A stretch of 64,000 nucleotides of DNA from an uncultured Candidatus Saccharibacteria bacterium (GTDB lineage: Bacteria > Patescibacteriota > Andersenbacteria > UBA10190), in contig CAYUBL010000001.1 in the NCBI GenBank assembly GCA_964443125.1, positions 16,094 to 80,093 of the forward strand, read 5' to 3'. How positions within the stretch are numbered: the stretch's first letter is position 1; each line of letters begins with the position of its first letter. Made by a program: the position numbers and the translations under genes. This document shows, one piece after another, positions 3,773-60,540 of this stretch. The notes under the pieces were generated by a model. That model had not been told where the DNA came from and did not search any database. It saw only the letters and a list, made by a program, of their open reading frames with translations.

Positions 3773-3891
3773 CAAAAAATAGATTTATCCAGAGTGGACA
3801 AAAATCAATAAGTCTCGTACGATAATTGGTCATATTTGCATATTGTGCATCATATTTGACAATATTTAATTCATATGCTAAAAAGGTATAT

Positions 3892-4965: not shown

Positions 4966-4997
4966 CCAACCGTTTTGCGGTACAATGATGGAAGCAT

Positions 4998-6275: not shown

Positions 6276-6281
6276 CTTCCT

Positions 6282-7994: not shown

Positions 7995-8038
7995 CGAAAC
8001 GCTACAGGCGAACAGCTAATTCGTGCTACAATACTTCC

Positions 8039-8728
8039 ATGCGCTACGACAAATCGGAAAGCAAGAAGATGCCGATCGACAAGCCGTTCGATTTCCACGA
8101 AGACGCAAACTGGAGAATATTCCGCATCATGTCGGAATTCATCGATGGATTCGAGTTCTTATATCCGCTCCGAAAAGAAGTAACATTTTTTGGATCCGCC
8201 CGGTTCCCCGAAGGGCACAAATGGTATGAAGAATCCCGCAAACTCGGCCGCATCCTCGCGGAAAATCAATTCACGGTCATAACGGGCGGCGGTCCCGGCA
8301 TCATGGAAGGCGGCAATCGAGGCGCATACGAAGGCGGCGGAAACTCCATTGGGCTCGACATCGAATTGCCAACTGAGCAACGGCGCAATGCATACGTGAA
8401 GAAGGGGATCGGATTCCATTATTTCTTCACTCGCAAAGTCATGCTTTCCGCGTCCGCCCAAGCATACGTATTTTTTCCCGGCGGGTTCGGTACGCTCGAT
8501 GAATTTTTTGAAATGATAACCCTCATCCAAACGGGCAAGATGATTCCCGTCCCCATCGTTTGCATGAGCAAGCATTTCTGGACTCCGCTGGATAGCTGGA
8601 TTCGGTCGCATCTATTGCAGGAGTACCAGGCAATTTCTCCGGAAGATCTTGACCTGTATACGATTGTCGATACGGCGGAAGACGCGTTCGATATCATTAA
8701 AGACTCAAAAGAGCGGAAATACTTTTAG
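8039..8728 (+). CDS. LOG-family protein (cytokinin riboside 5'-monophosphate phosphoribohydrolase-like; TIGR00730 Rossmann fold)
   Basis: Motifs VITGGGPGIMEGGNRGA and FFPGGFGTLDEFFEMITLIQTGK. Start taken as MRYDKSE. Confidence 0.8.
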   Translation: MRYDKSESKKMPIDKPFDFHEDANWRIFRIMSEFIDGFEFLYPLRKEVTFFGSARFPEGHKWYEESRKLGRILAENQFTVITGGGPGIMEGGNRGAYEGGGNSIGLDIELPTEQRRNAYVKKGIGFHYFFTRKVMLSASAQAYVFFPGGFGTLDEFFEMITLIQTGKMIPVPIVCMSKHFWTPLDSWIRSHLLQEYQAISPEDLDLYTIVDTAEDAFDIIKDSKERKYF

Positions 8729-9404: not shown

Positions 9405-11264
9405 ATGAAAACGCTCAACGAGGCTCGCGAGGCATATCTTTCTTTTTTTCAGGAGAAAGGACACGTTCGCATTCCGTCCGCATCGCTCGTCCCGGACAAT
9501 GATCCTACCACGCTGTTCACCGGATCCGGCATGCAGCCGATGGTGCCCTACTTGCTCGGACAAAAACACCCGCAAGGAAGCCGTATCACCGATTCGCAAA
9601 AATGTTTTCGGCTAAACGACATCGAGGACATCGGCGATAACCGCCATACCACATTTTTTGAAATGCTGGGGAATTGGTCGCTGGGCGACTACTTCAAAGA
9701 AGAACAAATTCCCTGGATGTATGAATTTTTAACCAAAAAACTGGGGCTTGATCCGCGCAACCTCTACGTAACATTTTTTGTCGGCAATGAAGAACTAGGC
9801 ATTGTAAAAGACATGACAAGCGCAACTATCTGGCAGAAGATGTTCCAAACAGACGGCATTGAAGCGATTATCAAAGATGATGCGGAATTAAAAGGAATGC
9901 AAGGCGGGCGGATTTTTTCGTACGACGAAAAGAAAAACTGGTGGTCTCGCGCGGGAGTTCCGGAAAATATGCCGATAGGGGAGCCGGGGGGCCCGGACAC
10001 GGAAATGTTTTGGGATTTTGGGGCAGATCTTTTGCTGCATGAAAAGTCTCCGTATAAAAATCAGCCATGCCATGTTAATTGCGACTGCGGACGCTTTATA
10101 GAAATCGGAAACAACGTATTTATGGAGTACATAAAAACGGAAACCGGATTTTCTCCGCTGCCGCAAAAGAACGTGGACTTCGGAGGAGGCCTGGAGCGAA
10201 TTACTGCCGCGCTCAACAATAATCCGGACGTATTTCTCATCGATGCGTTCAAGCCGGCGATGGACAAGCTTTCAGAGCTATCTCAAACCTCGTACGCCGA
10301 TACACAAGAGATTACGACCGCATATCGCGTCATCCTCGATCACGTGCGCGCCGCGGTATTTTTGATCGGAGACGGCGTACTTCCCGGCAATAAAGAACGC
10401 GAATACTTCGTCCGCCGGCTCATCCGCCGTGCGTCCGTATTCGGAAACCGCTTGAATATCAAAGAACCGTTTTTGTCGAAGCTCGCCGACGGCGTGATTG
10501 CGACATATGCCGATGCATACCCGAACCTTACCGATGCGCGCGACACGATTTTACAAGAACTCACCAAAGAAGAAGAAAAATTCTTGCCCACACTCGTGCA
10601 AGGCTTAAAGAAACTTGCGCAGATATTCCACTCACAGGAAGAAGTTTCCGGCGCGCAGGCATTCGAACTGTATGCAACATTCGGATACCCGATTGAAATG
10701 CAGCTGGAAGAAGCCGAAAAAGCGGGGAAGCGCGTTGATACGGAAGGCTTCAAAGAAGAAATGAAGAAACATCAGGATCTCTCTCGCACGGCTACGGAAG
10801 GAAAATTCAAAGGCGGCCTTGCCGATCACTCCGAGATGTCCGTGAAATATCACACGGCAACGCATTTGCTTCACCAGGCGCTGCGCACCGTGCTGGGCGA
10901 ACACGTATTTCAAAAAGGAAGCAATATCACCCCCGAACGGTTGCGGTTCGACTTTTCGCATCCCGATAAAATGACGCCTGAACAGATCAGGCAAACGGAA
11001 GACCTGGTGAATGAACAAATCCAAAGAGACTTGAATGTTACGCACGAAGAAATGAGCGTTGAGGAAGCAAAAAAACGAAACGCGCTTGGGCTATTCGAGC
11101 ATAAGTACGGCGATACGGTAAGCGTGTATACGGTCGGCGATTTCTCGTGTGAAATTTGCGGCGGCCCGCATGTTGAACATACCGGCGTGCTTGGAAAGTT
11201 TGTGATTACAAAAGAAGAATCCGCCGGTGCAGGCGTGAGGCGGATCAAGGCGGTGTTGAAATAA
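9405..11264 (+). CDS. alaS: Alanine--tRNA ligase, short form (catalytic, tRNA-recognition and editing domains; no C-Ala domain)
   Basis: Class II AlaRS N-terminal motifs (FFQEKGHVRIPSASLVP, FTGSGMQP, GNWSLGDYFKEE). Editing-domain HxxxH (HTATHLLHQALR) and CxxxH (CGGPHVEHTG). 619 aa against a typical ~870. Confidence 0.85.
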   Translation: MKTLNEAREAYLSFFQEKGHVRIPSASLVPDNDPTTLFTGSGMQPMVPYLLGQKHPQGSRITDSQKCFRLNDIEDIGDNRHTTFFEMLGNWSLGDYFKEEQIPWMYEFLTKKLGLDPRNLYVTFFVGNEELGIVKDMTSATIWQKMFQTDGIEAIIKDDAELKGMQGGRIFSYDEKKNWWSRAGVPENMPIGEPGGPDTEMFWDFGADLLLHEKSPYKNQPCHVNCDCGRFIEIGNNVFMEYIKTETGFSPLPQKNVDFGGGLERITAALNNNPDVFLIDAFKPAMDKLSELSQTSYADTQEITTAYRVILDHVRAAVFLIGDGVLPGNKEREYFVRRLIRRASVFGNRLNIKEPFLSKLADGVIATYADAYPNLTDARDTILQELTKEEEKFLPTLVQGLKKLAQIFHSQEEVSGAQAFELYATFGYPIEMQLEEAEKAGKRVDTEGFKEEMKKHQDLSRTATEGKFKGGLADHSEMSVKYHTATHLLHQALRTVLGEHVFQKGSNITPERLRFDFSHPDKMTPEQIRQTEDLVNEQIQRDLNVTHEEMSVEEAKKRNALGLFEHKYGDTVSVYTVGDFSCEICGGPHVEHTGVLGKFVITKEESAGAGVRRIKAVLK

Positions 11265-43979: not shown

Positions 43980-45548
43980 ATGCCTGCGCTTTACCGACAA
44001 TACCGCCCTGCAACATTCGCCGAAATTACCGGCCAGGGCCACATTACCGCCATTCTTGAGCAAGAAATCCTGAAGGAGAAAATCGCGCATGCGTATTTAT
44101 TCCAGGGCCCTCGGGGAACAGGCAAAACCACGACTGCCCGCGTGTTCGCCAAGCGCATCAACTGCAGCGCATCAAAAACCGCAGAACCCTGCAATTCATG
44201 CGATGCCTGCACTGCATTCAACGAGAAGCGTTCGCTGGATGTTTTGGAAATAGACGCCGCATCCAATCGCGGCATCGACGATATCCGCTCGCTGCGGGAA
44301 ACCGTCGCCCTCGCTCCGACAAACGGAACATACAAGGTATACATCATCGACGAAGTCCACATGTTGTCCGCTCCTGCGTTCGCCGCGCTGCTCAAAACGT
44401 TAGAAGAGCCGCCTCGCCATGTCGTCTTTATTTTAGCCACTACCGAGCTCCATAAAGTGCCGGCAACCATCGCGAGCCGCTGCCAATTGTTCCGCTTCCG
44501 CCGTGCTACTGCAGAAGAGATGCATGCGCGCCTCACGCACTTACTGCAGCAAGAGAAACGCGACGTGTCTCCCGAAGTTATTTCGTTTATCACGGCTCGC
44601 AGCGAAGGGTGCTACCGAGATGCGGAATCTCTCCTCGGACAAATTCTCTCCCATTCGCAGCAAGACATTTCCCTCCAAGACGTCTCCGACCTGCTCGGAA
44701 TTCCCGCGCCGGAAATGATCGAGCAATTCCTCTCAGCGCTTGTGGCAAGCAATGCGAAAGAAGCCGCAGCGATTGCAACCAAAGCGTACAGCGACGGGTT
44801 CGATCCCGAACAGTTCCTCCAAGAATCCATCCGCGCCGCGCGCGACGGAGCGGTACGAGCGGTAACCGGAGACAATCCTCCTGCATTCGCTTCGGCGCCA
44901 AACGCGCTCAACCGCATTACGGTCATCATGCGCGCCTTCCTTGTTGCACTGCAAGACATTGCGTATGTTCCGGACCCTTTAATCGCGCTCGAGCTTGCAA
45001 TTTTAACATCGTGCATAGGCTCTTCTTCCGCCCAAGCCCCAGTGCAACGCATATCTTCGCCGCAGCCAGCAACGCCGCATGCAACACCTGCCCCCAGCAC
45101 CCGGACTATGCCAGCTCCAAAAACTATCGACGCTGCAGCCAGCAAACCTGCAAGCCCGGCGATGCCCGCGCCTTCCGACGCTTCCGTACAACACCTCAAA
45201 TCGTCATGGGAAGATATCGTCCAAGCCGTGCGGAAAGATAACCCTGTGGCTTCCACGTTCTTGCGCGCCACGCATCCGCTTCGCATTCAGAACGACACCC
45301 TTGTGCTCTCCATGCAATTCCCATTGCACAAAACATTTTTCGAAAAGCCGCCCAACGCGCTCATTGTCCGCCAGGCAATCAAAGATATTACGGGAACAGA
45401 TCTTCGGCTCGCATGCGAACTGGATCGCAATGTACCCGCTCCTGCCGCACCTCGGGTGCAGCAGAGCCAAGGAAGCGCAAACGCCGAACCCGCGCAACAA
45501 GAAGATATCGTCCAAACGGTGCAGGAAATATTCAGCGCACCGGCATAA
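43980..45548 (+). CDS. dnaX: DNA polymerase III subunit gamma/tau
   Basis: AAA+ motifs (YLFQGPRGTGKTT, IIDEVHML, Zn module CNSCDAC, sensor ASRCQ). The C-terminal region is Pro/Ala-rich. Confidence 0.9.
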   Translation: MPALYRQYRPATFAEITGQGHITAILEQEILKEKIAHAYLFQGPRGTGKTTTARVFAKRINCSASKTAEPCNSCDACTAFNEKRSLDVLEIDAASNRGIDDIRSLRETVALAPTNGTYKVYIIDEVHMLSAPAFAALLKTLEEPPRHVVFILATTELHKVPATIASRCQLFRFRRATAEEMHARLTHLLQQEKRDVSPEVISFITARSEGCYRDAESLLGQILSHSQQDISLQDVSDLLGIPAPEMIEQFLSALVASNAKEAAAIATKAYSDGFDPEQFLQESIRAARDGAVRAVTGDNPPAFASAPNALNRITVIMRAFLVALQDIAYVPDPLIALELAILTSCIGSSSAQAPVQRISSPQPATPHATPAPSTRTMPAPKTIDAAASKPASPAMPAPSDASVQHLKSSWEDIVQAVRKDNPVASTFLRATHPLRIQNDTLVLSMQFPLHKTFFEKPPNALIVRQAIKDITGTDLRLACELDRNVPAPAAPRVQQSQGSANAEPAQQEDIVQTVQEIFSAPA

Positions 45549-45582
45549 AGAAAAGACCGCTTGAGAAAATCTCGAAGCGGTC
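45546..45582 (-). terminator. Rho-independent terminator for the minus-strand gene 45593-46156
   Basis: GACCGCTT...AAGCGGTC 8-bp stem. Read on the minus strand it is followed by TTTTCTTT. Also lies 3' of dnaX. Confidence 0.55.
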
Positions 45583-45592
45583 AATGTGCCGA

Positions 45593-46156
45593 TTATCTGT
45601 CGTTCACCCAAACGCGGTTCGGCTTCCACGTTTGCGTGTAGTGCGGATGATACCCCCGCACGCTTAGCTCTCCTTTTAAAAACACGTGCGGAACCCTGGA
45701 AAACCACAGTGGCTTCTCTTGATTCCGCTTTGCCTGAAGCAAATACTTGTACTGCGCCGATGGAATCCCTTCCGGTTCTCGGTACTTTCGCGCATCGAAT
45801 TTCTCTACCTCTGCCTCGGTATATTGCGATGCGTTATTATGCCAGTATGCCAGAGAGTGGCAGGGCAAATCCCGAATCGAAAATTCGTAGTAGGGAATCG
45901 GCGGCACCTCTCTTTCCATGCATACGGCAACCGCCTTGCAAATCAGGTTGGGATGCGCAGGCGTAAGAAAGATTACGTCGCCCCACGAGCAACCCAATGG
46001 AGGAATCTTGCGATCAAGCACTTCCTCCCTCCCGGCATACTTCAGGCGCTTTGCTTCGGCAATTGACGGCAGATGCTCCGCCAACTTGTTGATCGGGTAC
46101 AGCATGAAATTTGCAATCCCCGGCTTGCGATCCAAAAGCATATGGTATACGTTCAT
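45593..46156 (-). CDS. Hypothetical protein (187 aa)
   Basis: Minus-strand ORF with a strong RBS (AGGAGA, 6-nt spacer) at the MNVYHMLL start. Lower-GC segment. Divergent from the 46411 gene. No family recognised. Confidence 0.5.
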   Translation of the reverse strand: MNVYHMLLDRKPGIANFMLYPINKLAEHLPSIAEAKRLKYAGREEVLDRKIPPLGCSWGDVIFLTPAHPNLICKAVAVCMEREVPPIPYYEFSIRDLPCHSLAYWHNNASQYTEAEVEKFDARKYREPEGIPSAQYKYLLQAKRNQEKPLWFSRVPHVFLKGELSVRGYHPHYTQTWKPNRVWVNDR

Positions 46157-46248
46157 TTTTTGTCTCCTGAAAAGAACAGGGAAGACGGCCAACAGCACCG
46201 CAACAATCTGTTTTTCTCATACCATGTACATAAATATATGTCAATGCT

Positions 46249-46273
46249 AATTCCAAGGATCATTCCTGGAATT
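46249..46273. promoter_or_regulatory. 25-bp near-perfect palindrome (AATTCCAAGGA-tcat-TCCTGGAATT) in the divergent promoter region
   Basis: Lies in the AT-rich 46200-46410 intergenic region between two divergent genes. Operator-like. Confidence 0.4.
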
Positions 46274-46367
46274 GCGCCTATTTATCTCATAGGGAAATTT
46301 GTGCATATTGACAAAATAATTATTTTATGCAATAAGAATCACAGAGGAAGTAGATCTCTTGATCTAA

Positions 46368-46390
46368 ATTCCAGAACATTTCCAGAACAT
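46368..46390 (+). repeat. Tandem direct repeat (T)TCCAGAACATT x2 immediately upstream of the RBS of the 46411 gene
   Basis: TTCCAGAACATT then TCCAGAACATT head-to-tail, 8 nt before GAGAGGAG and the ATG. An AGATCtcttGATCT palindrome lies at 46351-46364. Confidence 0.45.
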
Positions 46391-46410
46391 TCTCACGAGA
46401 GGAGTTAGTT

Positions 46411-46773
46411 ATGATGACCGTCCAAGAAGACAGGGTTGAAGTCCTTATAGATTTGATTTTCGGCCCTGGCGCATTTACACCTCTCGCGAGCCGTTCTCCG
46501 ATCGAGCAGGAACTTCTTCGAAACGCCGTACGGCACGCGTGCATGTACCTACCTGAGGTCGAAAGGATCATTCTCGCGCTTCGGTATGGCGTAGGAGACC
46601 AGGATATTCACAGCTTGAAAGAAACCGCATTACTCACGAACATGACAGAGCTGGATGCATACTATATTGAGAGCAAGGCACTCAAGAGGCTTTATAAAAC
46701 ACCTCTCATGAATCTTCTTCGGTCGCAAATCGACGAGTTCCTGTTTCAATGCGGAGCTCTCTGTCGTCGCTAA
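46411..46773 (+). CDS. Small sigma-70 region-4-like HTH protein (120 aa)
   Basis: LPEVERIILALRYGVGDQDIHSLKETALLTNMTELDAYYIESKALKRL resembles a sigma-70/ECF region 4. No region 2 is present. Strong RBS. Confidence 0.5.
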   Translation: MMTVQEDRVEVLIDLIFGPGAFTPLASRSPIEQELLRNAVRHACMYLPEVERIILALRYGVGDQDIHSLKETALLTNMTELDAYYIESKALKRLYKTPLMNLLRSQIDEFLFQCGALCRR

Positions 46774-46792
46774 CGACCTGGCACAACAACGC

Positions 46793-46834
46793 AAAAGCCG
46801 GTGATGTACTTATTACCTCATCGGCTTTTTCTTT
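46793..46834 (+). terminator. Rho-independent terminator (bidirectional)
   Basis: AAAAGCCGGTGATG...CATCGGCTTTTTCTTT. A-run 5' and T-run 3'. Confidence 0.65.
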
Positions 46835-46845
46835 GTTGACCGTTA

Positions 46846-46863
46846 GTTCCCGGGCAGGGATTC
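46846..46863. repeat. 18-bp exact direct repeat of the 3' end of tRNA-Gln (GTTCCCGGGCAGGGATTC), att-like
   Basis: Identical to 47094-47111 (T-loop end, acceptor 3' strand and discriminator of the tRNA). The copies are 248 bp apart. Confidence 0.6.
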
Positions 46864-47048
46864 CTCTCCGGTACATCTCCTGACGGAGATTTCCTTCGAG
46901 CCCGGGCTCGCGGTGTTCGCCTTTTCGTCCGCCAGCTGGCGGACTCAAAACTCACACAACGCTCCGCCCTTCGAATCCCTAAGAAGTGAAGCAGTTCACT
47001 TCTTAGGGTACCCCCAAAGTGTGATGCGAGGGCGCCGGGCGCCAATGC

Positions 47049-47073
47049 AAAAACCACCGCTTCGGTGGTTTTT
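47049..47073. terminator. Bidirectional rho-independent terminator AAAAACCACCG-ctt-CGGTGGTTTTT (downstream of the minus-strand tRNA-Gln)
   Basis: Perfect 6-bp GC-rich stem with an A-run on one side and a T-run on the other. Confidence 0.7.
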
Positions 47074-47094
47074 AGTCGCATTTCTACTTTGGGG

Positions 47095-47165
47095 TTCCCG
47101 GGCAGGGATTCGAACCCCGATTCAGAGATCCAAAGTCTCTTGTCCTGCCTTTAGACGACCCGGGA
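47095..47165 (-). tRNA. tRNA-Gln (anticodon UUG)
   Basis: Manual fold of the reverse complement: acceptor UCCCGGG/CCCGGGA (the U1-A72 pair typical of bacterial tRNA-Gln), D arm GTCT/GGAC, anticodon stem AGAGA/TCTCT with loop CTTTGGA (U33, UUG, G37), T arm CGGGG-TTCGAAT-CCCTG, discriminator A. CCA is not encoded. Confidence 0.8.
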
Positions 47166-47310
47166 TGAATATGTTAGGTGAACATACCAAAAAAAGGACA
47201 AAACAGCAACTATGGGCGCTTTCTTTGACACTCTGCCCATTTGAGCATAGGGTGGAAGCAGGACGCGAGCACACTACCCAATTTACCCATTCCCATGAAA
47301 GGCTCTCGCC

Positions 47311-47967
47311 ATGTCAAAGTCTCGCAGAAACCTTTCAGATCCCTGCAACAAGCTCATGGATGCCCTGCGCACGAATTTTGAAGACGCACTGGATGCCGCG
47401 CGGGTGTACGATAAAATCATCGTATCTGCTCCGGCAAAAAAACAGCAAGGATTATTTTTTCTCATTGTTACGCGGCACCGCTTGCTTCGAGAAAAGAAGA
47501 GTAAGCGAGTAAAGCAGTCTCAATTCTCCCATGCCACTGCAGCCCAAGACGCATCCCTCCTGAGCAAGTACGGCGCCCTCGTTGCAAAATGGTGGAAGTC
47601 CATTTCTTTGCATAATCCCACCCAAGGAAAAGCAGCAGAGCATCTATACAACAACCTCATGCAGATAGAAGTGCCGTATGAACGGGTTGTTGCGCTGAGT
47701 TTGCTGCTCTACCATCTTCCGTACGCCCCATTCAATCCCCAGTCGCTTTCTCTCGCGCCGCCTGAAAAGCGATCGTATAATCAAATGCGAGAGCATATCC
47801 TGCCGGCGCTTGCACTCCACTACCGCCTCAACATCCAAGAAGCGGATTTCATGAATCCGCTCGATATAGCGAACGAAACCCTTGCCATTCTGGAGGGAAT
47901 TTCCGACCGCCTTGAACGCGCCGTACTTCTCCGCGAGATCCTCCGGAGTAAATTCCGGCTTGAATAA
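47311..47967 (+). CDS. Hypothetical protein
   Basis: 218-aa alpha-helical ORF. No family recognised. Confidence 0.45.
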   Translation: MSKSRRNLSDPCNKLMDALRTNFEDALDAARVYDKIIVSAPAKKQQGLFFLIVTRHRLLREKKSKRVKQSQFSHATAAQDASLLSKYGALVAKWWKSISLHNPTQGKAAEHLYNNLMQIEVPYERVVALSLLLYHLPYAPFNPQSLSLAPPEKRSYNQMREHILPALALHYRLNIQEADFMNPLDIANETLAILEGISDRLERAVLLREILRSKFRLE

Positions 47968-48070: not shown

Positions 48071-51000
48071 ATGGCATTTTCCGCTCAACATAAGAAGACC
48101 GTGTTGTATCTCGTACTTGTGGGGGGAGTTGCTATCGTCGCCGCGGCCATGCTGTATGGGCAAATTATCAAACCAACCGATATCGCCACCCAAGTCGTCC
48201 CGGATTCCGGGGCGGCTATTTGTGAAACGGAAAACGAAGTCTCTTTTCCGGACAATGCCCCTTGGGGGTTAACGGAACTGTACAAACGGCGCTTGCGCGG
48301 AGAAGCGAGCGCGCGACCGACAAGCATCGATACGCGCAACGGAACGTACACATGGACGGCGGCAAACGGGCATTTTGATTTGGCACAGCCGGAGATGGCG
48401 ATTTTCCATGACTTGCAGTGTACCAACCCAACCGACTATTCCGGCGGAGCCGGCGGCCGGGAATACGTGCGTTTAACCAACGCCGCCGGACTCAACAGCG
48501 CGCGCAACAAGAACTACGCCGGAAGCGTTTCGTACGGCACCGACCAGCGGACCTTTTCCAGCGACGGAAGTTGGGCATCGATTACTTCTTCCGGGCGATG
48601 CGTGCCGGGAGTTACCAGCTGTTCTACGTCGACATCAACGCCGATGCTGTACAAGTCCGATGGATCCGTCGGCAGATACGTCCGATTTGAGCCGAACGTG
48701 AACCCCCCTTCAGGATTCAACTTCGGGTGGGGAGGTGCGACCGAACCGAATATGCTGTACTGGACGGCAAACTTCAAGTACCTCGCCGATCTGTTTGTCA
48801 CTGACCTTGCGACCGGAACGTCTTCGCGGGTAGCGTCGGATATATTCAAAAATTCCAGCCATGGCTCGGATCAGCGGAAAATCGTCCGTTCTCCCGTCGC
48901 CGACAACGGCCTATTGCTTGTGAGCGATACGGTAGAAATCGGCGTCGGCAATGGGCTCGATTGGAAACTGATGCCGGTTGCCGTTGCGTCGGTTTCCGAC
49001 GGACCCAATGGCGCCAATACGCGGATCACGTTCACCGGAGAGCACGGGCTTGAGGTCCGCGATCGACTGCGCATGCAAGGCCCGCCCGATATTTCATGCA
49101 AATCAGACAATTCATGCAACTCGATAGGAGAGCGGCGCGTGGTGACCGACATCGTTGATAGCGTGACGGTCGATATTGCAGACGGCCAATTCACCGATTG
49201 GATCAACACGCATCGAAACGAATTCGACTTGGTAGACGTTACCGGATTTACGCTCAAGTATGAGCGATACCGGCAAAAAGTATTCATGTATGACGTGCTC
49301 AACAAAGAAATGGCCGGAGAATACTTTACCGACATCGGACTTGTCGACACCACCGGCCGAGGGTACATCCACAACCAAGGCGAAGAATACCGCATGCACT
49401 CATTCGGCATGTCGCAAACAGGAACGTTCTGGAACGGAACATTCGGTTCCATTTCCGCGACAAGCGAAGGAATTCCGTTCCGTTTCCCCACAAATACGAC
49501 ATCGCCTTCGCCTGAAGACGTGCAAATGCTCGGGAAAAATCCCTGCGAAGCGGGCAGCTGGCCATACTTCGGACATTCCGCATTCGGCCCGCTGGCCGAC
49601 CAGGTCGTGGTGGCAGACGGCACAAAATGCGGAGCGAATGAACACAACATGTCGCTCTGGAGACTGCACGATGCCACGTTTCTTAAAACAATCGAACTTC
49701 CCGCAACGGCAGGGGGCGTGCTTCATGCGCGCTGGCAATCCAACAACAAGTGGATGTATGTGAGTGTAAAGCCGAAAGGGGAAACCACAACCAGCCGCAT
49801 GCTTCTGCGATGCGATACGGACGCCGACAGCGACCATTGCGAAACGATCGCGCGAGGGTATGTAGGAGAAACTCCATCGACCGACAGCGGCACCATTCGT
49901 CCGAAGAGCAGTCCTGACGGCACGAAAGTACTGCTCAATTCCAGCGAATTCAACGGCAGAGGAAACCAGTCGGGAGTCGAATACAAGAATATCGTCGACG
50001 TATTCTATGCCGTCAGCTTTATGCCGGAACCTCCAAGCACGCTTGCTGCCGACAGTGCGGGAGTCCTTTCTTGGTCCGTGCCTACGATTCCTCTGCAAGG
50101 AGAAAACATCCCCATCCAAGAAGCGAAGGGATACCATGTGTACGAGAGCAGCAATACCGCGGCAAATAACTGCACGGGGCCATGGACGCGCATCAGCGCC
50201 GAAGCTTCATCAGCTCTATCCTTGAATGTATCCGGCCGCATCGGCGCAGGACAGAGCAAATGCTACGCCGCCACAACGGAAGAGACCTCCTCGCTCGAAT
50301 CCAACATGCTCGGCAATCGCGTCATTGTCACCAATACCGGCAGCGGCTTTACATCCGCACCCGGGGGAGAGAAAGGCGTTACCGGATTCGACACAACGGC
50401 GCCTGTCGCCCCGACGCTTACGCTCGCATCGTTCCGTTCGATTTATGGACAGGCAAACGCATACGTCAACGGACTCACGTTCACTGCTCCGGAAGATTCG
50501 GACACCAGGTATTACAATATCTACTACGCAAGCGAAGGCACTCCCGCATGCGATCAAGCACATCTTGCATGGTCGATTCCGCGCGCTTCGATTGCAACGT
50601 TTGCAACTGAAGGCGGGGAGCGTCCGTTCTTCGATTACCTTGCCGACCCCGACTCTTCCGGAGCATACTACGCCATCCAAGCCATCGACCGCGCCGGCAA
50701 TGCATCCTCCTGCGCATACGGCGGAACAGGTGGCCCGTCCGTAGCGCCCGCCACACCAACCCCGACGCCCAGCGCTACGCCGACACCAACGCCAACTCCG
50801 ACCGCAACACCATCACCAACTCCTGCTGCAACACCGACACCTACCCCCGCTCCCACCCAGAACGTTACCCAAGCAAGCTCGAGCGAAGAGAAAAGCTCTT
50901 CGTCATCAGGAGATGGCGGAGGAGGACGCGAGAATGAAGCGCCTGCCCCGACTCCGAAGCCGCGCATCTATACCTTCCAATCAGAAACCGGGCACAAGAT

Positions 51001-51364
51001 TTCCGGCCCGTATTCCGGTGTAGAGCCATCCAAAAAAACGATCGTGCTTGCCGCGAATAATTCCAGACTGGAACGATCCGTATCTGTCCCGCGTGGCGAC
51101 TACTGGCTCGACGTGCAAGTAAAGAACGATACTCCCGCTCCGGTATATTTTGCGGTATATCTTGACGGCAAAGCATGGAAAATCGTCCGCGCAATCCAAG
51201 GAACCAATGCCTATCGGCTTGAGCGCGCAGGGCTGCTGAGAAACTTCAGCAGCGGAACGATCGCATTTCGCATGATCAACGACACCTACGATAAATCGCA
51301 GCCTACCAATGCAGCTAAAGACCGCAACCTGCATATCGACTGGTGGCGCCTGGTATCCTACTAG
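48071..51364 (+). CDS. Large secreted/cell-surface protein (1097 aa) with N-terminal signal anchor, Fn3/Ig-like regions, a PT-repeat linker and a C-terminal carbohydrate-binding-module-like domain
   Basis: N-terminal [20 protein letters not shown]. Gly/Ser/Thr-rich beta-type composition. Linker [35 protein letters not shown] roughly 130-aa C-terminal beta-rich domain ending ...[10 protein letters not shown]. Confidence 0.6.
50755..50860 (+). repeat. Low-complexity ACN/CCN codon repeat encoding the Pro-Thr linker
   Basis: Degenerate tandem CCAAC/CCGAC/ACACC repeats within the large surface-protein gene. Confidence 0.7.
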
Positions 51365-53982: not shown

Positions 53983-54008
53983 TGACAGAGCGCATCAACT
54001 CAACCCCC

Positions 54009-54036
54009 AACGCCGATCACCCGATCGGCGTTTTTT
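54009..54036 (+). terminator. Rho-independent terminator CGCCGATC-accc-GATCGGCG-TTTTTT; left edge of the AT-rich island
   Basis: 8-bp perfect stem followed by T6. GC content drops sharply to its right. Confidence 0.7.
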
Positions 54037-54481
54037 CTTGCTCAAGTTTTTCTAGTTGTATTTTGCGGAGTTGTTCATATATAGCATCAACCTCTTGCTC
54101 TATTACAGAGCGATCATGCCCTTGAGTCTCTAGCTCCCAAAGTACTTCTTCTACCGCTTTATCAAAATCATTGCCATATTTCACATTAATCTTTTTCCAA
54201 TGCACATTTGCAAATAGCTTTGCAATATCGGGGGAATAGGCAATTTTACCAAGCAGCATGAGCACAGCGATCATCGGATACCCGATGTACTTCTGCCAAT
54301 ACGTTCCATTATCATTTGAAATCATCGCGCTTGCGTCCGCATTCCATTTCACCACATACGATTTATCGCGAGATGAAGACGTAACTTTTGCCTTGTTCCC
54401 ATCCAGCAGATCGACACGCCCATCTGCCACGGTAGATAGCGCCTCATATACTTTTGCCTTTGGTGGAACTTTCCAGAGCAT
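54017..54481 (-). CDS. Hypothetical protein (minus strand, divergent from the nuclease-like gene)
   Basis: About 154-aa ORF (start taken as MLWKVPPKAK). Its 3' end runs into the terminator stem, so the exact end is uncertain. No family recognised. Confidence 0.35.
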   Translation of the reverse strand: MLWKVPPKAKVYEALSTVADGRVDLLDGNKAKVTSSSRDKSYVVKWNADASAMISNDNGTYWQKYIGYPMIAVLMLLGKIAYSPDIAKLFANVHWKKINVKYGNDFDKAVEEVLWELETQGHDRSVIEQEVDAIYEQLRKIQLEKLEQEKTPIG

Positions 54482-54538
54482 ATACTCATCATATCGAAAA
54501 ATATTCGGTTTTTGTACGTTATAAGATAGAATACAAAC

Positions 54539-55030
54539 ATGCCTATCCAGAAACAAAATGTTGGCAATGCAGGAGAGTATTACATTGCTGCTAGACTATC
54601 TGCAGAGAATTTTATCGCGACAATAACTCTGGGCCGTGCTGAAAAGTACGATATTCTTGCGCTAAGCCCAACCTCTAGAAGTGTACGACTTTCCGTCAAA
54701 ACGCAATTCTTAAAAACATCAAAATCATTCCCCCTGTCCGAAAAGGATGAAAGAGGGGAGTCAGAAGATTTTTACTATTGTTTTATCCGACTCAATGAAT
54801 TTCAGCAAGAGCCTGATTTTTGGATCATACCAAGCACTATTGTATGTCCGATACTAAAAAATTCACACGCAAAATGGCTAAGCGGAATGGGTAAGAACGG
54901 CCACATCAGAAAAGATACCTCGATGAGACTCCTGCCGCTGATCGTTTCGAGCGGATTACTAGAATTCTATCCCGAAAAATGGGAAGATGACTTAGCGCAG
55001 TATTACAAAAATATTGAACAATTGACCTAA
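54539..55030 (+). CDS. PD-(D/E)xK-fold (Hjc/restriction-endonuclease-like) nuclease candidate
   Basis: N-terminal VGNAGEYYIAARLSAENF...AEKYDILAL...VRLSVKT reproduces the GxxGE-x(n)-DIxA-x(n)-(E/S)VK pattern of Hjc-type resolvases and small restriction-like nucleases. The third acidic position is Ser. Confidence 0.45.
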   Translation: MPIQKQNVGNAGEYYIAARLSAENFIATITLGRAEKYDILALSPTSRSVRLSVKTQFLKTSKSFPLSEKDERGESEDFYYCFIRLNEFQQEPDFWIIPSTIVCPILKNSHAKWLSGMGKNGHIRKDTSMRLLPLIVSSGLLEFYPEKWEDDLAQYYKNIEQLT

Positions 55031-55043
55031 AAGAATATAAGAA

Positions 55044-55544
55044 ATGAGAAAAACAATTATAATATCACCGACAAAACCATTAATAGTAACAATAACACCA
55101 CTTGCTCTTGCTATAATATCCGATGATTTTCATAACGCAGCAGAAAAACTCTCGATTAAAGATCGTATTTCTTTGGTAAAATATTATTTGTACCTAGCGG
55201 CAATAGAGAGAGGATTAAAAGCAGCTATCCTAAGCAAAGAATTCACGAAAGAAAAAAAGGGGTATCTGAAAAATAGAATCGGACATGATATCGAAAGGCT
55301 ATATCAAGATTTTAAAAAATCATTTGCTTTGGATTTATTCAACAAAAGTGACCTAAAATCTTTAAAAAAAGCTAACGCGAGATACAGAGACAAGGGATTT
55401 GAATACTTTGACAGTGATATGCTGTATCAAGCAGCAATAGGGTTTAAAGATTTACCAAGCCTAGAAGGGATTCGCAGTATAAGCAAGAAAGTTAATGCTT
55501 TTCTTATACGAAATAAGTCTTTCATAGAACAGGGGTCCAGCTAA
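55044..55544 (+). CDS. Hypothetical alpha-helical protein (loose HEPN-like resemblance, unconfirmed)
   Basis: 166 aa with ERGLKAAILSKEF...LKNRIGHDIERLY. A charged R-x-x-H-D-x-E patch in a helical scaffold, which does not cleanly fit the Rx4-6H motif. Confidence 0.3.
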   Translation: MRKTIIISPTKPLIVTITPLALAIISDDFHNAAEKLSIKDRISLVKYYLYLAAIERGLKAAILSKEFTKEKKGYLKNRIGHDIERLYQDFKKSFALDLFNKSDLKSLKKANARYRDKGFEYFDSDMLYQAAIGFKDLPSLEGIRSISKKVNAFLIRNKSFIEQGSS

Positions 55545-55592
55545 TATTCGGTTTTTGTATCTAGTAAAAATGGGATACTATTAATATTAGGT

Positions 55593-56549
55593 ATGTCTAC
55601 AAGACAAGCAGTCAAGAATATACAAGAGGAATTTGGCCTTAGTCCAATATATGCTGAACGAGTTTACTCGTTAGCAAATAAAGATAATTTATCTGAAGAC
55701 GTGGCACGGATTATCGCGGAAAAGCCCAAACCTTTTGTAAAATGGGTAGGAGGCAAACGCCAGCTTTTGACACAGTTTAAAACTCTCAATCTCTACCCTC
55801 CATCTCGTTTTGATATTCATAAAGGAACGTATTATGAGCCTTTTATTGGTGGAGGCGCTGTATTCTTCGATCTCCTACCAGCAAAGGCGGTTCTATCTGA
55901 TTTAAACGAAGAACTCGTCATCACATACAAAGTTATTCAACATGATGCACAAAAACTCATTGAATCTTTAAAAAAGCATAAGAACAACAAAGAATATTTT
56001 CTAAAAGTACGAGCGCTGGACTGGAAAGACTTGAGCGACATTGAAACTGCTTCTCGATTTATTTTCTTAAATCGAACTTGTTTTAATGGGCTGTATCGAG
56101 TTAACAGCAAAGGGCAATTCAATGTTCCATTTGGAAAGTATGTAAAACCTCTTATTTGCGATGAAGAGAATATAAGAAAAGTATCAAAAGCACTACAGGG
56201 CATTAAGATCATACATAGTGACTATAAAAAAACAGTACGCAAAGCTCAAGAAGGAGACTTTGTATATTTTGACCCACCTTACTATCCAATCAGTAAAACG
56301 TCGTCATTTACCTCGTATACAAAAGAGTCTTTTTTAGAGAACAATCAGATAGAGCTTCGAGACACGTTTGCAGAATTGCACAAAAGGGGCTGTTTTATAA
56401 TGCTCTCGAACTCTGATACACCATTTATTAATGATATTTACTCTACAATCAAAGGGGCCACTATTACAAAGGTTCGTGCCGGTAGGGCGGTAAACGCCAA
56501 TGCGAGAGGGAGAGGGAAGATTGCCGAGATTCTCGTAACTAATTACTAA
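55593..56549 (+). CDS. Dam-family (D12 class) N6-adenine DNA methyltransferase
   Basis: Collinear with E. coli Dam/DpnM: FVKWVGGKRQLL, YYEPFIGGGAVFF (motif I), FLNRTCFNGLYRVNSKGQFNVPFGKY, and DFVYFDPPYYPISKTSSFTSYT (motif IV DPPY). Confidence 0.85.
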   Translation: MSTRQAVKNIQEEFGLSPIYAERVYSLANKDNLSEDVARIIAEKPKPFVKWVGGKRQLLTQFKTLNLYPPSRFDIHKGTYYEPFIGGGAVFFDLLPAKAVLSDLNEELVITYKVIQHDAQKLIESLKKHKNNKEYFLKVRALDWKDLSDIETASRFIFLNRTCFNGLYRVNSKGQFNVPFGKYVKPLICDEENIRKVSKALQGIKIIHSDYKKTVRKAQEGDFVYFDPPYYPISKTSSFTSYTKESFLENNQIELRDTFAELHKRGCFIMLSNSDTPFINDIYSTIKGATITKVRAGRAVNANARGRGKIAEILVTNY

Positions 56550-56556
56550 AAATAAT

Positions 56557-57816
56557 ATGACGAAGATATCTGATGCCTGGGAGAAAGTGTTTGCAATAAA
56601 AAACTACGACCTAACAAAGAACCTGCATTCCATTACAGCTAAAGAGATTAAACAGATTACAGGTGAAGAGCCACGTATAATGGCAAAGTTCGATTCTTCT
56701 ATGGACCTACCAAACATCATGAAGAAAAATGGATATTTTTTATTGCCAGTAAAAAACGGAGAATACGCTATAGTTCGCGGTAACGGCTTCCATACACTTG
56801 AAAAAACAAGAGATTGGACAAACCACACATCACGTATCAAATTTAATTTAACAACAGCTGGTCGCGGGTTAAGTGAAATGCAGTATTTGGACTATAGCTT
56901 TAACTCTGGAGCGCTTGAGGACATTCTAGACATTACGCCCCTGTACCAATCTATTCGTGGACGTGAATACAGCAAACAATTTCACTTTGCGGTCGACAAG
57001 ACCAAAATTAACGTTGAATCCGTTCAGCTTGAAGTAGATTCTGGTCTTGAGGGCGAAGATTCCATTGTCCTTATTGAAGCTAAAGTCAAAAGTCCCGAAG
57101 ATTTTATTATTCGTCAACTTTTCTACCCATATAATCATTTTAGAATTGTATCTCCAGACAAGAGAGTAATTCCTGTCTTTTTTGTTTATGAACCATCATC
57201 ACAACTTTATCATTTCTGGATATACGAATTTACAGATCCCGCCAATTATAACTCTATTCGCCTGAAAGAGATCAAATCACTAATGATAAGCACTGAACAA
57301 GAGATAAAACTATCCGACATCAAGCCAAAGGGAATAGTTAATTACAAGGATCTCATTCCTCAAGCAAATGACCTGAATAAAGTAATTGAGCTCGCATTTA
57401 AGGTTAAAGAAGGCGTAAATCATTATAAAAAAGTTGCGGAATATTTTAAATTTAATGAACGACAAAGTAGCTACTACAGAGAAGCAGCAGAGGCCCTGGG
57501 ACTAGTCATAAGCGAAAAAGGTGCTTACCAATTAACCGACATTGGTAAACATTTAGTAGCCCTGCCGGCAGAAAAACGTAATTTATTTATGGTGGAACTA
57601 TTAAGTGATTTCAGCTTAATTAAAAGAAGTCTGAATATTCTTGAGAGCAACGGTAAATTACTCCAAGATGACCTAGAAAATATTATTGAGCAACAATCTT
57701 ACTTAAGTCAGTCGACAATTTCGCGTCGCGCTGGATCTCTTAAAAGGTGGCTTGAATGGATATCAGAAGCCACTGGTTCCTTTACAAACGAAGAGAATGA
57801 GTTCCGAACAGAATAA
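56557..57816 (+). CDS. Putative type II restriction endonuclease (PD-(D/E)xK core) with a C-terminal winged-helix-like extension
   Basis: Lies between two DNA methyltransferase genes. EVDSGLEGEDSIVLIEAKVKS fits a D-x(n)-E-x-K nuclease motif. No match to DpnII recognised by eye. Confidence 0.5.
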   Translation: MTKISDAWEKVFAIKNYDLTKNLHSITAKEIKQITGEEPRIMAKFDSSMDLPNIMKKNGYFLLPVKNGEYAIVRGNGFHTLEKTRDWTNHTSRIKFNLTTAGRGLSEMQYLDYSFNSGALEDILDITPLYQSIRGREYSKQFHFAVDKTKINVESVQLEVDSGLEGEDSIVLIEAKVKSPEDFIIRQLFYPYNHFRIVSPDKRVIPVFFVYEPSSQLYHFWIYEFTDPANYNSIRLKEIKSLMISTEQEIKLSDIKPKGIVNYKDLIPQANDLNKVIELAFKVKEGVNHYKKVAEYFKFNERQSSYYREAAEALGLVISEKGAYQLTDIGKHLVALPAEKRNLFMVELLSDFSLIKRSLNILESNGKLLQDDLENIIEQQSYLSQSTISRRAGSLKRWLEWISEATGSFTNEENEFRTE

Positions 57817-58567
57817 ACCCGGGATAGATCTACATGACTTTGAGCTAGAATGCACTACCGTTTGGGCTTTTCCACGCAGAGGCAACTGGGCAACACATAC
57901 TTCGGACTGGAGAGGCAATTGGGCGCCAGAAGTAGTACGAAATCTTATTTTGAGATATTCGAAAGAAAAAGATATTCTCTTCGATCCAATGATTGGTGGC
58001 GGAACTACTGCCATAGAAGCCAAGATTCTAAACCGGAATATCATCTGCTCAGATGTTAACAAAAAAGCCCTAAAAAGAACTAAGGATTGTCTAAACTTCG
58101 AAATTGACAATACATCTTGGCAAAAAATCTATAGGTGGGATGCGCGCGACTTAAATAAACTCCCCAATGAAAGCATTGATTTTATCCTCACACATCCTCC
58201 ATACGCCGACATTATAAAATATAGCGAGGGTAAAATAAATTCCGATATGTCAAACATCCATGATTTGGAAGAGTTTGCGAACGAGATGGAGAAAGTTGCT
58301 AAAGAGTTATATCGGGTACTTAAGCCTGGTAAGTTTTGTGCAATACTCATAGGAGACACTCGACGCAAAAAGATGTATCAACCCTTGGCGTATAAAGTAA
58401 TGGATAGATTCCTAAAAGCAGGATTCCAGCTGAAAGAGGATATTATTAAAAGACAATTCAACTGCAAAGCAACTGGTTTCTGGGCTAAGAGGTCACAAGA
58501 GTCAAATTTTCTCCTAATCATGCACGAGCATTTGTTTGTGTTTCAGAAAATTAGACCTAATGATTAA
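57797..58567 (+). CDS. N6/N4-type DNA methyltransferase (PF01555-like; DpnA/MboC-like second methylase)
   Basis: Motif I-like FDPMIGGGTTAIEAKILN. Motif IV is THPPY (His in place of D/N/S). Start taken as MSSEQNK (GAAGAGA RBS), 20-nt overlap with the upstream gene. Confidence 0.7.
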   Translation: MSSEQNKPGIDLHDFELECTTVWAFPRRGNWATHTSDWRGNWAPEVVRNLILRYSKEKDILFDPMIGGGTTAIEAKILNRNIICSDVNKKALKRTKDCLNFEIDNTSWQKIYRWDARDLNKLPNESIDFILTHPPYADIIKYSEGKINSDMSNIHDLEEFANEMEKVAKELYRVLKPGKFCAILIGDTRRKKMYQPLAYKVMDRFLKAGFQLKEDIIKRQFNCKATGFWAKRSQESNFLLIMHEHLFVFQKIRPND

Positions 58568-58699
58568 ATCTTTAATCTTTATTAGAAATAATATTAATAT
58601 CACAGGTCTGTTCTTTGACAGCTAAGGAAGTTGTCGCCAGAACATCAATACTCCCTTAAACTAATTAACAATAAGATACCATAACCTTTCGTTGAATAT

Positions 58700-59845
58700 A
58701 TGAAAGTAACAGTGAGGCCAATAGTCCTAAAAGGATGGCGTATCAGAAAAGGATTACCGCTCGAGGCTGTAGTAGCAAAAACAAAGATCGAAGAGTCCGA
58801 AATAAGTCACTGGGAAACTCACAGAAGCGAGATAAGTGTTGCCGATCTCAAAAAGATAGCGAAGTTTTATAGGTTATCGTGGACAGCATTTTTACTAGAT
58901 GAACTGCCTCCATCAAAAAAAGATCCAGTAAACCACAGGCGGCGACCTGATGCTAAGGATTTTTCTCCGGAGACATTGCAAGCTTTTACGCGTGCTAGGC
59001 ATATTCTTGAGTTTGCATCTGACATTGGCTTAGTAAAAGAAAATAAACTCACGGAGAGGTTCCCCACCGCAATAACTCATAATCCTGAACTTGTTGCCTC
59101 AAAGGTCAGAAGTTATATAGAAACACCTTTTGATCATCAACTAAAATGGCGCAATGCCAATGTGGCGAAACGTAAATGGATTGATATTCTTGAGCGAGAG
59201 GGTATTTATATTGCCGAAATGGATATGCCCGAAGTTGAAGCGAGGGGTTTTTCACTGAAGGAAAGCGGAAGGGATATTATAGTCTTGAGTAAAAATGATT
59301 CCGTAAACGGTCGTATATTTTCTCTATTTCATGAGGTAGCCCATTTGTTACTTAAAAAGTCCGGTGTTTGCGACATGTATGAAGGTAATGGTCCCGATCA
59401 AAGAGTGGATAGAACCGAAGTATTTTGCAATGCATTTGCGGGTGCTTTTCTTTTACCGAGTCAAAGCTTCCTAAATGATAGTTTAGTTATATCAGCAATA
59501 AGGGAAAAGAACTTTTCCGATTCGGTCCTACAATATTTGGGAAAACGCTTTAATGTTAGTGCTGCCGTTGTACTAAGAAGACTAAATAACTTTGGATATA
59601 TTTCTAGTCAAGAATATAAACGTCGCTACACAGACGAACAAGATATGTATGTTGAGAGTGAAGAGAAAAATAAAAAGGGCTTCGCACGACATGAATACAA
59701 AGTTATCAATCAAAATGGGCGCGCGTTCACGTCTGAAGTGATTACTGCGTATGCTTCGAATATTATTACTGCTCATGATGTTAGCAATTACCTCAATACA
59801 ACCGTAAGAAGTATTTCGCGTATTGAGCAAGCGCTTTCTAAATAG
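58700..59845 (+). CDS. ImmA/IrrE-family (COG2856) zinc metallopeptidase with an N-terminal XRE-like HTH
   Basis: HEXXH site FHEVAHLLL and an N-terminal HTH-like segment (SVADLKKIAKFYRLSWTAFL). Confidence 0.7.
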   Translation: MKVTVRPIVLKGWRIRKGLPLEAVVAKTKIEESEISHWETHRSEISVADLKKIAKFYRLSWTAFLLDELPPSKKDPVNHRRRPDAKDFSPETLQAFTRARHILEFASDIGLVKENKLTERFPTAITHNPELVASKVRSYIETPFDHQLKWRNANVAKRKWIDILEREGIYIAEMDMPEVEARGFSLKESGRDIIVLSKNDSVNGRIFSLFHEVAHLLLKKSGVCDMYEGNGPDQRVDRTEVFCNAFAGAFLLPSQSFLNDSLVISAIREKNFSDSVLQYLGKRFNVSAAVVLRRLNNFGYISSQEYKRRYTDEQDMYVESEEKNKKGFARHEYKVINQNGRAFTSEVITAYASNIITAHDVSNYLNTTVRSISRIEQALSK

Positions 59846-59850
59846 TTTCC

Positions 59851-60360
59851 ATGAACGCTCAACTCAGCATGGAGCAGCTCTACTGCATAGACAGCTCAGC
59901 TCTTATAGAGTTGTGGAATCCTGACAACTGGCAATTGCCAAAGGATGTATCCCAACTGATTTGGTCTCATGTAGATACTCTTGTTGCCCAGCAACGAATC
60001 ATTTCTTCACGCGAGGTTTACGATGAAATTAAGGATGATTTAAATGATGGCTTCAGGCAATGGATGCGAGTGCATCGCGACATATTCCTAGAGCTAGATA
60101 GTGAACAAATTAAACTGGGCAAGGCGATAGTTAATAAATATCCCCTACTGACTGATGGGGGTAGAAATCATGCCGACCCATTTGTGGTATCAGTGGCCAA
60201 AGCTCATGGTGCGACTGTCATTGGCTGCGAAAAACCTGTGACTACAACGCACTCACAGATAAGACCAAAAATCCCTAGCCTATGCCACGAACACGCAGTT
60301 GAATATGTCACAATTAAAGATTTTTGCATGAAGGAAAGACTGAGTTTCCGGTTAGCGTAA
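59851..60360 (+). CDS. DUF4411-family (PIN-like) protein, partner of the ImmA/IrrE peptidase
   Basis: 169 aa. PIN-like N-terminus YCIDSSALIEL with conserved Asp. 5-nt spacing from the upstream peptidase gene. Confidence 0.55.
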   Translation: MNAQLSMEQLYCIDSSALIELWNPDNWQLPKDVSQLIWSHVDTLVAQQRIISSREVYDEIKDDLNDGFRQWMRVHRDIFLELDSEQIKLGKAIVNKYPLLTDGGRNHADPFVVSVAKAHGATVIGCEKPVTTTHSQIRPKIPSLCHEHAVEYVTIKDFCMKERLSFRLA

Positions 60361-60540
60361 AGAAAGACTAGGTCCATGAGCTGAATAGAGATACGTTTAT
60401 CATTCCCGTAAGCGACAAAACGGATGCGATGCGGATCGGGATGGGACTAGAGCTGCTGACAATTGTATATTTTAACGGGCGGACAACTGAAGAAATCCAG
60501 CAGGCCGAAAAATACGGTGTTCGACGAAACGGGCAAGGGA

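Follow-up and report, generated by a model that had tools for sequence, protein, structure and literature searches.

How did a tRNA gene come to be followed, 248 bp downstream, by a second and exact copy of its own 3′ end? The question is raised by a 64-kb stretch of genomic DNA (64,000 nt; hereafter the window) whose source organism is placed by its DnaX homologs in Candidatus Andersenbacteria (Patescibacteria/CPR). The window holds one tRNA gene, tRNA-Gln(UUG) on the minus strand, on which ARAGORN and Rfam agree. A preliminary description, made by inspection of the bases, had reported the tRNA, the 18-bp copy, and an array of perfect hairpins between the two, and had proposed three origins for the arrangement: a deleted integrative element, a decayed duplicate of the tRNA, or a structured small RNA co-transcribed with tRNA-Gln. 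We examined these proposals by repeat and covariance-model searches, by folding, and by comparison with related loci.

An exact, sharp-edged copy of the tRNA-Gln 3′ end

ARAGORN, Rfam, and a repeat search uphold the coordinates of the tRNA and of its copy (Table 1). The 18-mer GTTCCCGGGCAGGGATTC is found at exactly two sites, 248 bp apart, with no third match at up to three mismatches in the 64 kb, and two matches arose in none of 100 dinucleotide shuffles. Read on the tRNA strand, the repeat is GAATCCCTGCCCGGGAAC; it begins with the final 4 nt of the T-loop, takes in the 3′ strands of both the T-stem and the acceptor stem, and closes with the discriminator and one additional nucleotide. The tRNA-Gln itself is intact, and the second copy of its 3′ end lies downstream as a direct repeat, as is usual for tRNA-associated att sites. 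At their flanking ends, the tRNA gene reads ...AACCG and the distal copy in the window AACTA; the distal copy of a related locus (L081, described below) ends in ...GGGAACCA, like a CCA-tailed tRNA.

Table 1. Coordinates of the features described in the text (window positions).
Feature	Position	Strand	Remark
tRNA-Gln(UUG), intact	47095-47165	-	ARAGORN tRNA-Gln(ttg) 47093-47165; Rfam RF00005 58.3 bits at 47095-47165
18-nt core, proximal copy (GAATCCCTGCCCGGGAAC as read with the tRNA)	47094-47111	-	
tRNA-proximal hairpin module (outer stem, GC hairpin, and terminator)	47006-47099	-	
Long-range outer stem enclosing the GC hairpin and the terminator	47006-47029 with 47076-47099		Absent from the preliminary description
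A5-stem-T5 bidirectional terminator	47049-47073		Inside the outer stem
GC hairpin GGCGC-CGG-GCGCC	47031-47043		Absent from the preliminary description
Hairpin, 14-bp stem and 4-nt loop	46977-47008		Perfect; not conserved in L081
Palindrome GTCCGCCAGCTGGCGGAC (GTCCGCCAG followed by CTGGCGGAC), 18 nt	46927-46944		Perfect; not conserved in L081
Palindrome CGAGCCCGGGCTCG, 14 nt	46897-46910		Perfect; not conserved in L081
27-nt arm, on the interior side of the distal core, with the perfect palindrome ATCTCC-N4-GGAGAT at 46875-46890	46864-46890	-	
Palindrome ATCTCC-TGAC-GGAGAT	46875-46890		Perfect
Distal exact copy of the 18-nt core, putative attR core	46846-46863	-	19-nt copy at the equivalent place in L081
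Terminator hairpin of the 120-aa gene	46784-46838	+	Stops 8 nt short of the distal core
120-aa gene, sigma-70-region-4-like	46411-46773	+	Convergent with the tRNA
D12/Dam-type methyltransferase	55593-56549		Low-GC island
DUF6996/DUF6997/DUF7226 protein	56557-57816		Low-GC island
N6_N4 methylase	57752-58567		Low-GC island
HTH and ImmA/IrrE protein	58700-59845		Low-GC island
DUF4411 protein	59851-60360		Low-GC island

The copy has abrupt borders. Identity to the tRNA drops from 18/18 within the core to 3/12 on the side of the adjoining 27-nt arm, and the sequence on the other side is unrelated. A search toward dnaX for a degenerate third core, which would be a sign of tandem accretion, gave nothing above a background of 12-13/18. 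The sharp edges carry the signature of an att core and not that of a decaying duplicate. They bear directly on the second of the proposed origins, in which the distal copy would be what remains of a tandem tRNA-Gln duplication, either a decayed pseudo-tRNA or a tRNA 3′ half. The copy does lie close to the tRNA and in the same orientation; its arm lends itself to drawing as a stem and a T-arm-like hairpin with a 4-nt spacer between them, and a GCCCGGG segment in the window could pair with the 3′ strand of the acceptor. However, neither ARAGORN nor the Rfam tRNA model matches at the copy, even at E ≤ 10, and the arm resembles the corresponding tRNA segment no better than shuffled sequence does (2288 of 5000 shuffles align at least as well). 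L081 lacks the proposed 5′ acceptor strand, and a decaying pseudogene would not keep the 44/45 identity reported below across such divergence. A tandem duplication is very unlikely, the least probable of the origins weighed here. The shortened tRNA-like cloverleaf of the preliminary description is not supported by the same comparisons; it can be drawn since CCCGGG is self-complementary, and it relies on a CCCGGG segment that is lacking in L081.

Several other kinds of element were considered and set aside. A group I intron, an idea taken from a report of such introns in anticodon loops (PMC13011429), is at odds with a tRNA that is intact and with the lack of any intron model match. CAST homing spacers, an IS110 bridge RNA, IS200/IS605 PATEs, integron attC sites, and split tRNA halves were rejected in the absence of a supporting gene. 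Besides the tRNA, Rfam 15 returned only sub-threshold chance matches (E ≤ 10) between 46700 and 47300, and it returned no match in the relatives.

Palindromic DNA between the two copies

The 230 bp between the copies form the most structured 256-nt stretch of the window. Each palindrome of the preliminary description is present and perfect, as is the terminator, and folding places the interval well beyond chance. Its minimum free energy lies at z = -7.7 (minus strand) and -7.0 (plus strand) relative to shuffles when folded as RNA, and at z = -8.8 when folded as DNA. After GC correction, it is the strongest outlier on both strands among all 256-nt windows of the 64 kb (z = -5.0 and -5.4 for the two strands), the next unrelated region reaching about -2.9. 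A fold equally strong on both strands and as DNA is to be expected of palindromic DNA and provides no evidence for a strand-specific RNA. The interior contains no credible gene; the single long ORF in it reads through the palindromes to give an Arg-rich translation. Nor does any part of the interval have a second copy in the 64-kb window or among 95 loci, as would be expected of a REP- or MITE-like repeat with several copies per genome.

The hairpin module next to the tRNA is likely the terminator of the tRNA transcript. This assignment matters for the proposal that tRNA-Gln is co-transcribed with the entire interval, as a long structured 3′ trailer or as a small RNA. The extreme fold would suit such an RNA, as would an outer stem that begins 1 to 2 nt after the tRNA end and the presence of an analogous tRNA-proximal hairpin module in L081. 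A perfect A5-stem-U5 terminator 20 nt after the tRNA should nevertheless stop most transcription before the rest of the interval is reached, and in L081, too, the tRNA has a strong terminator 20 nt behind it. The interior is unconserved, sharing neither sequence nor k-mers with L081 beyond chance, and in three other relatives (L082, L091, and L092) the identical tRNA is followed only by a simple terminator. The equal folding of both strands and of DNA is what palindromes give, and no Rfam family matches. A co-transcribed RNA is accordingly very unlikely.

A 45-nt block shared with one relative

Comparison loci were drawn by DnaX from relatives in a protein collection, with twelve look-ups of genomic context. 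The GTDB representatives include no close relative (best DnaX identity 36-37%), and exact look-ups of the window's proteins found none on record. The DnaX tree has the form (window,(L081,L082)), with L090-L092 as the sister group, followed by L083-L086 and then by L093-L095. The sequence of tRNA-Gln is 100% identical in L081, L082, and L090-L092.

The DnaX of L081 is 71% identical to that of the window, and the locus carries the identical tRNA-Gln, again on the minus strand, with a 19-nt copy of the tRNA end 263 bp downstream. A 45-nt block consisting of the 18-nt core and the 27-nt arm, ATCTCCGTCAGGAGATKTACCGGAGAGGAATCCCTGCCCGGGAAC, is identical at 44 of 45 positions between the two genomes, whose coding DNA is 68-77% identical. 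This block and the tRNA with its upstream region are the only non-coding DNA that can be aligned between them. Outside the block, the two interiors, of 200-odd bases each, have a Smith-Waterman score of 17 against a shuffle mean of 16 and have no 8-mer in common. The interior of L081 is hairpin-rich as well (z = -4.95), and a terminator module that is analogous, but unrelated in sequence, directly follows its tRNA. Of the two prospective att arms, the one on the attR side is conserved and the one on the attL side is not.

The second relative lacks the arrangement. In L082 the identical tRNA runs directly into a terminator, with a single core and no distal copy. Its DnaX protein is 85% identical to that of L081 and the flanking DNA about 91%, yet the homology of the two loci ends at the dnaX stop codon and restarts exactly at the tRNA 3′ end, which indicates that the whole L082 spacer has been exchanged. 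L082 has the single core expected of an empty site, but since its entire dnaX-tRNA spacer differs, it is not a clean one. Two filled sites are known, those of the window and L081.

The preliminary description had regarded the recurrence of the same ~250-bp arrangement in relatives, without variation in length, as the mark of an ancient structural feature and not of an att scar. This holds in part: one relative, L081, has the arrangement at a similar length (263 versus 248 bp), which keeps alive a reading in which the 45-nt block is an old, host-selected element. Such an element would go back to the ancestor shared by the window, L081, and L082, and L082 would have lost it with the replacement of its spacer. 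It could be a protein-binding DNA site centered on ATCTCC-N4-GGAGAT, or belong to a small RNA with a 3′ end that mimics that of tRNA-Gln or base-pairs with it; read on the plus strand, the block has perfect complementarity to 18 nt of tRNA-Gln. The identity of 44/45 set against 68-77% in coding DNA and unalignable non-coding DNA elsewhere is what such selection would leave. The similar spacing from the tRNA, the single origin favored by parsimony on the DnaX tree once the L082 replacement is granted, and the folding of both interiors far beyond shuffles (z = -7.7 and -4.95) agree with it as well. On the other side, the block has no Rfam match even at E ≤ 10 and no sigma-70-like promoter was detected within 46300-47500. 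The block is situated beyond the tRNA terminator in both genomes and, in the window, between two convergent terminators. The neighboring genes differ between the two genomes and so offer no common regulatory target, the one substitution gives no test of covariation, and the block is missing from all sister-clade loci. We consider host selection of an ancestral element unlikely.

Recurrent insertion at the 3′ end of tRNA-Gln

In this lineage, the same tRNA end has repeatedly been a site of insertion and replacement. In L083, an island of 5.2 kb (3219-8523) directly follows tRNA-Gln, has CGGAACACTTT repeats at its borders (3285 and 8508), and encodes a 430-aa large serine recombinase (4403-5695) with Resolvase, Recombinase, and Zn-ribbon domains. 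In L086, the tRNA is followed by an insert of ~640 bp (10063-10720) that contains one 145-aa ORF of unknown family; beyond the insert, the tRNA end recurs in the imperfect form CCTGTCCacgcCCCAGAACAA. The contig of L090 (GCA_964654145.1; tRNA-Gln at 9642-9713) stops exactly at the last base of tRNA-Gln, which points to heterogeneity among strains or to a break in the assembly at the att position. The tRNA-Gln sites of L084, L085, and L091-L094 are single-copy. No within-species polymorphism was seen, L090, L091, L092, and the 24 contigs of P0021 all having a single-copy tRNA-Gln on the plus strand.

The orientation of the tRNA also varies. The other loci of Andersenbacteria have a plus-strand tRNA-Gln immediately behind dnaX. 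Relative to dnaX, it is inverted in the window/L081/L082 clade as compared with all other Andersenbacteria loci examined (window 43980-47165 versus L083-L086 and L090-L095). The inverted unit could be exactly the tRNA, the interior, and the distal copy.

A separate non-coding feature was encountered in sister-clade loci. Between the dnaX stop codon and the plus-strand tRNA-Gln, a block of ~240 nt is conserved in L084 (9590-9870), L085 (9600-9900), and L086 (9608-9935). RNAalifold predicts a 15-bp closing stem and several further helices for it, with 13 compensatory pairs from three sequences only. It has no Rfam match at the gathering threshold or at E ≤ 1. The block, which is absent from the window, is a candidate for an unannotated structured RNA.

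Genomic context and searches for a parent element

Upstream, the genes of the window are of housekeeping type: a PBP, GreA, two aminoacyl-tRNA synthetases, FtsQ, a PMT-type glycosyltransferase, GtrA, and DnaX. Downstream lie proteins of 218 and 1097 aa of unknown function. Between dnaX and the distal copy are a 201-aa ORF on the minus strand and then the 120-aa ORF on the plus strand. As the terminator of the 120-aa gene stops just short of the distal core (Table 1), the block sits between two convergent terminators. The search for a sigma-70-like promoter was negative throughout 46300-47500. A Pfam scan of window ORFs found no recombinase, and the annotation of L081 lists none.

The segment adjoining dnaX differs among the three related genomes. 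The 201-aa (minus) and 120-aa (plus) ORFs at 45593-46773 have no counterpart in L081 or L082. The 120-aa ORF gives a weak sigma-70 region 4 signal (Pfam E 0.0024; PHROG 351 E 6e-5), beyond which PHROGs and Pfam detect nothing in the flanking small ORFs. L081 has at that dnaX-adjacent position a conserved coiled-coil gene of 124 aa instead, which is ancestral, with 50% identity to an L083 gene.

Two further regions of the window deserve mention. The 1097-aa protein (48071-51364), apparently a surface protein specific to the lineage, has no Pfam domain and only two detectable homologs in a collection of 5.8 billion proteins, one in L081 (67% identity) and the other an 1817-aa protein (59% identity) with Big, fn3, and LysM domains. 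An extra contig reached through the search for its homologs, L089, carries no tRNA. A low-GC island at 54000-60400 (38% GC against about 53%) contains several defense-type genes (Table 1) and is probably a horizontally acquired restriction-modification or defense island.

We searched for an intact element carrying the arm or the core, and none was found in viral contigs, JGI metagenomes, or phage and plasmid records. Viral contigs gave zero matches to the arm with the core and to the core alone, and blastn with the interval against phage and plasmid records gave no match. The query CCGGAGAGGAATCCCTGCCC has two matches in JGI metagenome contigs. Both come from unrelated organisms of high GC and lie within coding sequence, away from any tRNA, and were dismissed as chance.

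A model of integration at the tRNA

Of the three origins first proposed, a deleted integrative element is the best supported, by the position of the repeat, its edges, the relatives, and the insertion hot spot; the integrase and parent element that it calls for were not found. On balance, we think it somewhat probable that the two copies are the attL and attR of a gene-less integrative-element remnant or mini-element, similar to a cis-mobilizable element (CIME), at an integration hot spot. A mobile element would have integrated site-specifically into an att site that extends from the T-loop to the 3′ end of tRNA-Gln. Its attP would have had the 18-nt core between the 27-nt arm and a second arm, and a recombinase encoded elsewhere, or since lost, would have recombined it with the tRNA gene. 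The tRNA-Gln with the proximal core would then be attL, composed of the native 5′ part and the core. The element-borne core and the hairpin and terminator module downstream of it would now complete and terminate the tRNA, and the 230-bp interior would be what remains of the element, or a gene-less mini-element in itself. The displaced native tRNA end would lie 248 bp away and be preceded by the element arm, so that attR would consist of arm, core, and native flank. The arm, with its ATCTCC-N4-GGAGAT palindrome, would be the putative footprint of the recombinase or of an accessory protein on attP.

We infer that recombination produced the repeat and that the arm was the protein-binding part of attP; the latter would explain why the arm is all that two otherwise unrelated interiors have in common. 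The model makes its junctions explicit. The parental attP would read arm-core-CCCCAAAG-like, an empty site would join ...CCCGGGAAC directly to TAACGGTCAAC, and the junction of an excised circle would join 46864-46890 and the core to CCCCAAAGTAG.

With neither a recombinase nor a gene inside, and with attL and attR both kept, the unit conforms to the published definition of a CIME. Against integration stand the absence of an integrase and the small number of filled sites, two. The conservation of the unit also sits uneasily with simple decay. Given the tree (window,(L081,L082)) and the replacement of the L082 spacer, a single old insertion is the most parsimonious history. An old neutral scar, however, should not keep a 44/45 block and perfect repeats. 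To account for them, the model must invoke either selection on the block or separate, recent insertions of related elements. The similar spacing in the two genomes, 248 and 263 bp, is likewise not what random decay predicts. Since the attL-side arm is not conserved, the competence of the unit for excision is doubtful.

These points would be accommodated if the unit had a function. The ~250-bp unit might be a functional, attP-only mini-element that is moved in trans by a recombinase encoded elsewhere in Andersenbacteria populations, or the block might be a host-selected mimic of, or antisense element to, the tRNA-Gln end; we regard these readings together as distinctly unlikely. A functional mini-element would consist of a conserved 27-nt recombinase-binding arm and an 18-nt tRNA-Gln core, and its hairpin-rich body would be free to vary while supplying the terminator of the tRNA. 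A mini-element or a mimic would explain the perfect repeats and palindromes, the near-identity of the block at ~30% divergence, and the similar length of the units, which a neutral scar does not.

The mobile elements of CPR/Patescibacteria and their integration sites are poorly charted. The locus marks the 3′ end of the dnaX-adjacent tRNA-Gln as a recurrent recombination hot spot in Andersenbacteria, and the 45-nt block of arm and core could serve as a probe for finding intact elements and their recombinases. If the unit is a scar, it is an ordinary feature, and annotators should not mistake the locus for a tRNA-like gene or a small RNA. A mobile attP-only mini-element, or a selected tRNA-end mimic, would, if true, be a small but new type of element.

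Comparison with known systems

The closest parallel is provided by CIMEs, decayed remnants of ICEs or IMEs that keep attL and attR and are devoid of integration and transfer genes (PMC5704250). As in these, direct att repeats flank DNA free of a recombinase, the tRNA 3′ end is reused by other elements, and the tRNA is intact. The present unit differs in being ~230 bp long and in containing no gene, whereas described CIMEs are kilobases long; in addition, it has no known autonomous relative, conservation is confined to the arm on the attR side, and the host belongs to the CPR.

The T-loop and 3′ end of tRNA genes are a described class of recombination site for genomic islands and prophages, for example in Klebsiella islands (bioRxiv 10.1101/2020.11.02.365908), and mycobacteriophage Ms6 has its att site in a tRNA-Ala gene (PMC1762012). 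The locus resembles these att sites in that a block of identity runs from the T-loop to, or past, the 3′ end, in its direct repeat downstream, and in its sharp borders. In contrast to them, the repeats here enclose 230 bp and not an element that bears an integrase.

ORF-less integron cassettes and MITE-like elements are, like the unit described here, small, non-coding, and hairpin-rich, and the unit could in principle be moved by a recombinase acting in trans. The locus differs from them in having no attC, IntI, terminal inverted repeats, or short target-site duplications and in being single-copy in the 64 kb and in all fetched loci.

The primer-binding site of retroviruses and LTR elements, 18 nt complementary to a tRNA 3′ end, has a counterpart in the exact 18-nt match to the end of tRNA-Gln, and the L081 copy, ending in ...GGGAACCA, is like a CCA-tailed tRNA. 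The likeness is one of resemblance only: there is no reverse transcriptase, the copy in the window reads AACTA, and the copy and the neighboring tRNA gene run in the same sense. Set beside these systems, the locus most likely falls into a known category: a remnant without genes, bounded by att sites, at a tRNA hot spot. It is unusually small and comes from an under-studied phylum.
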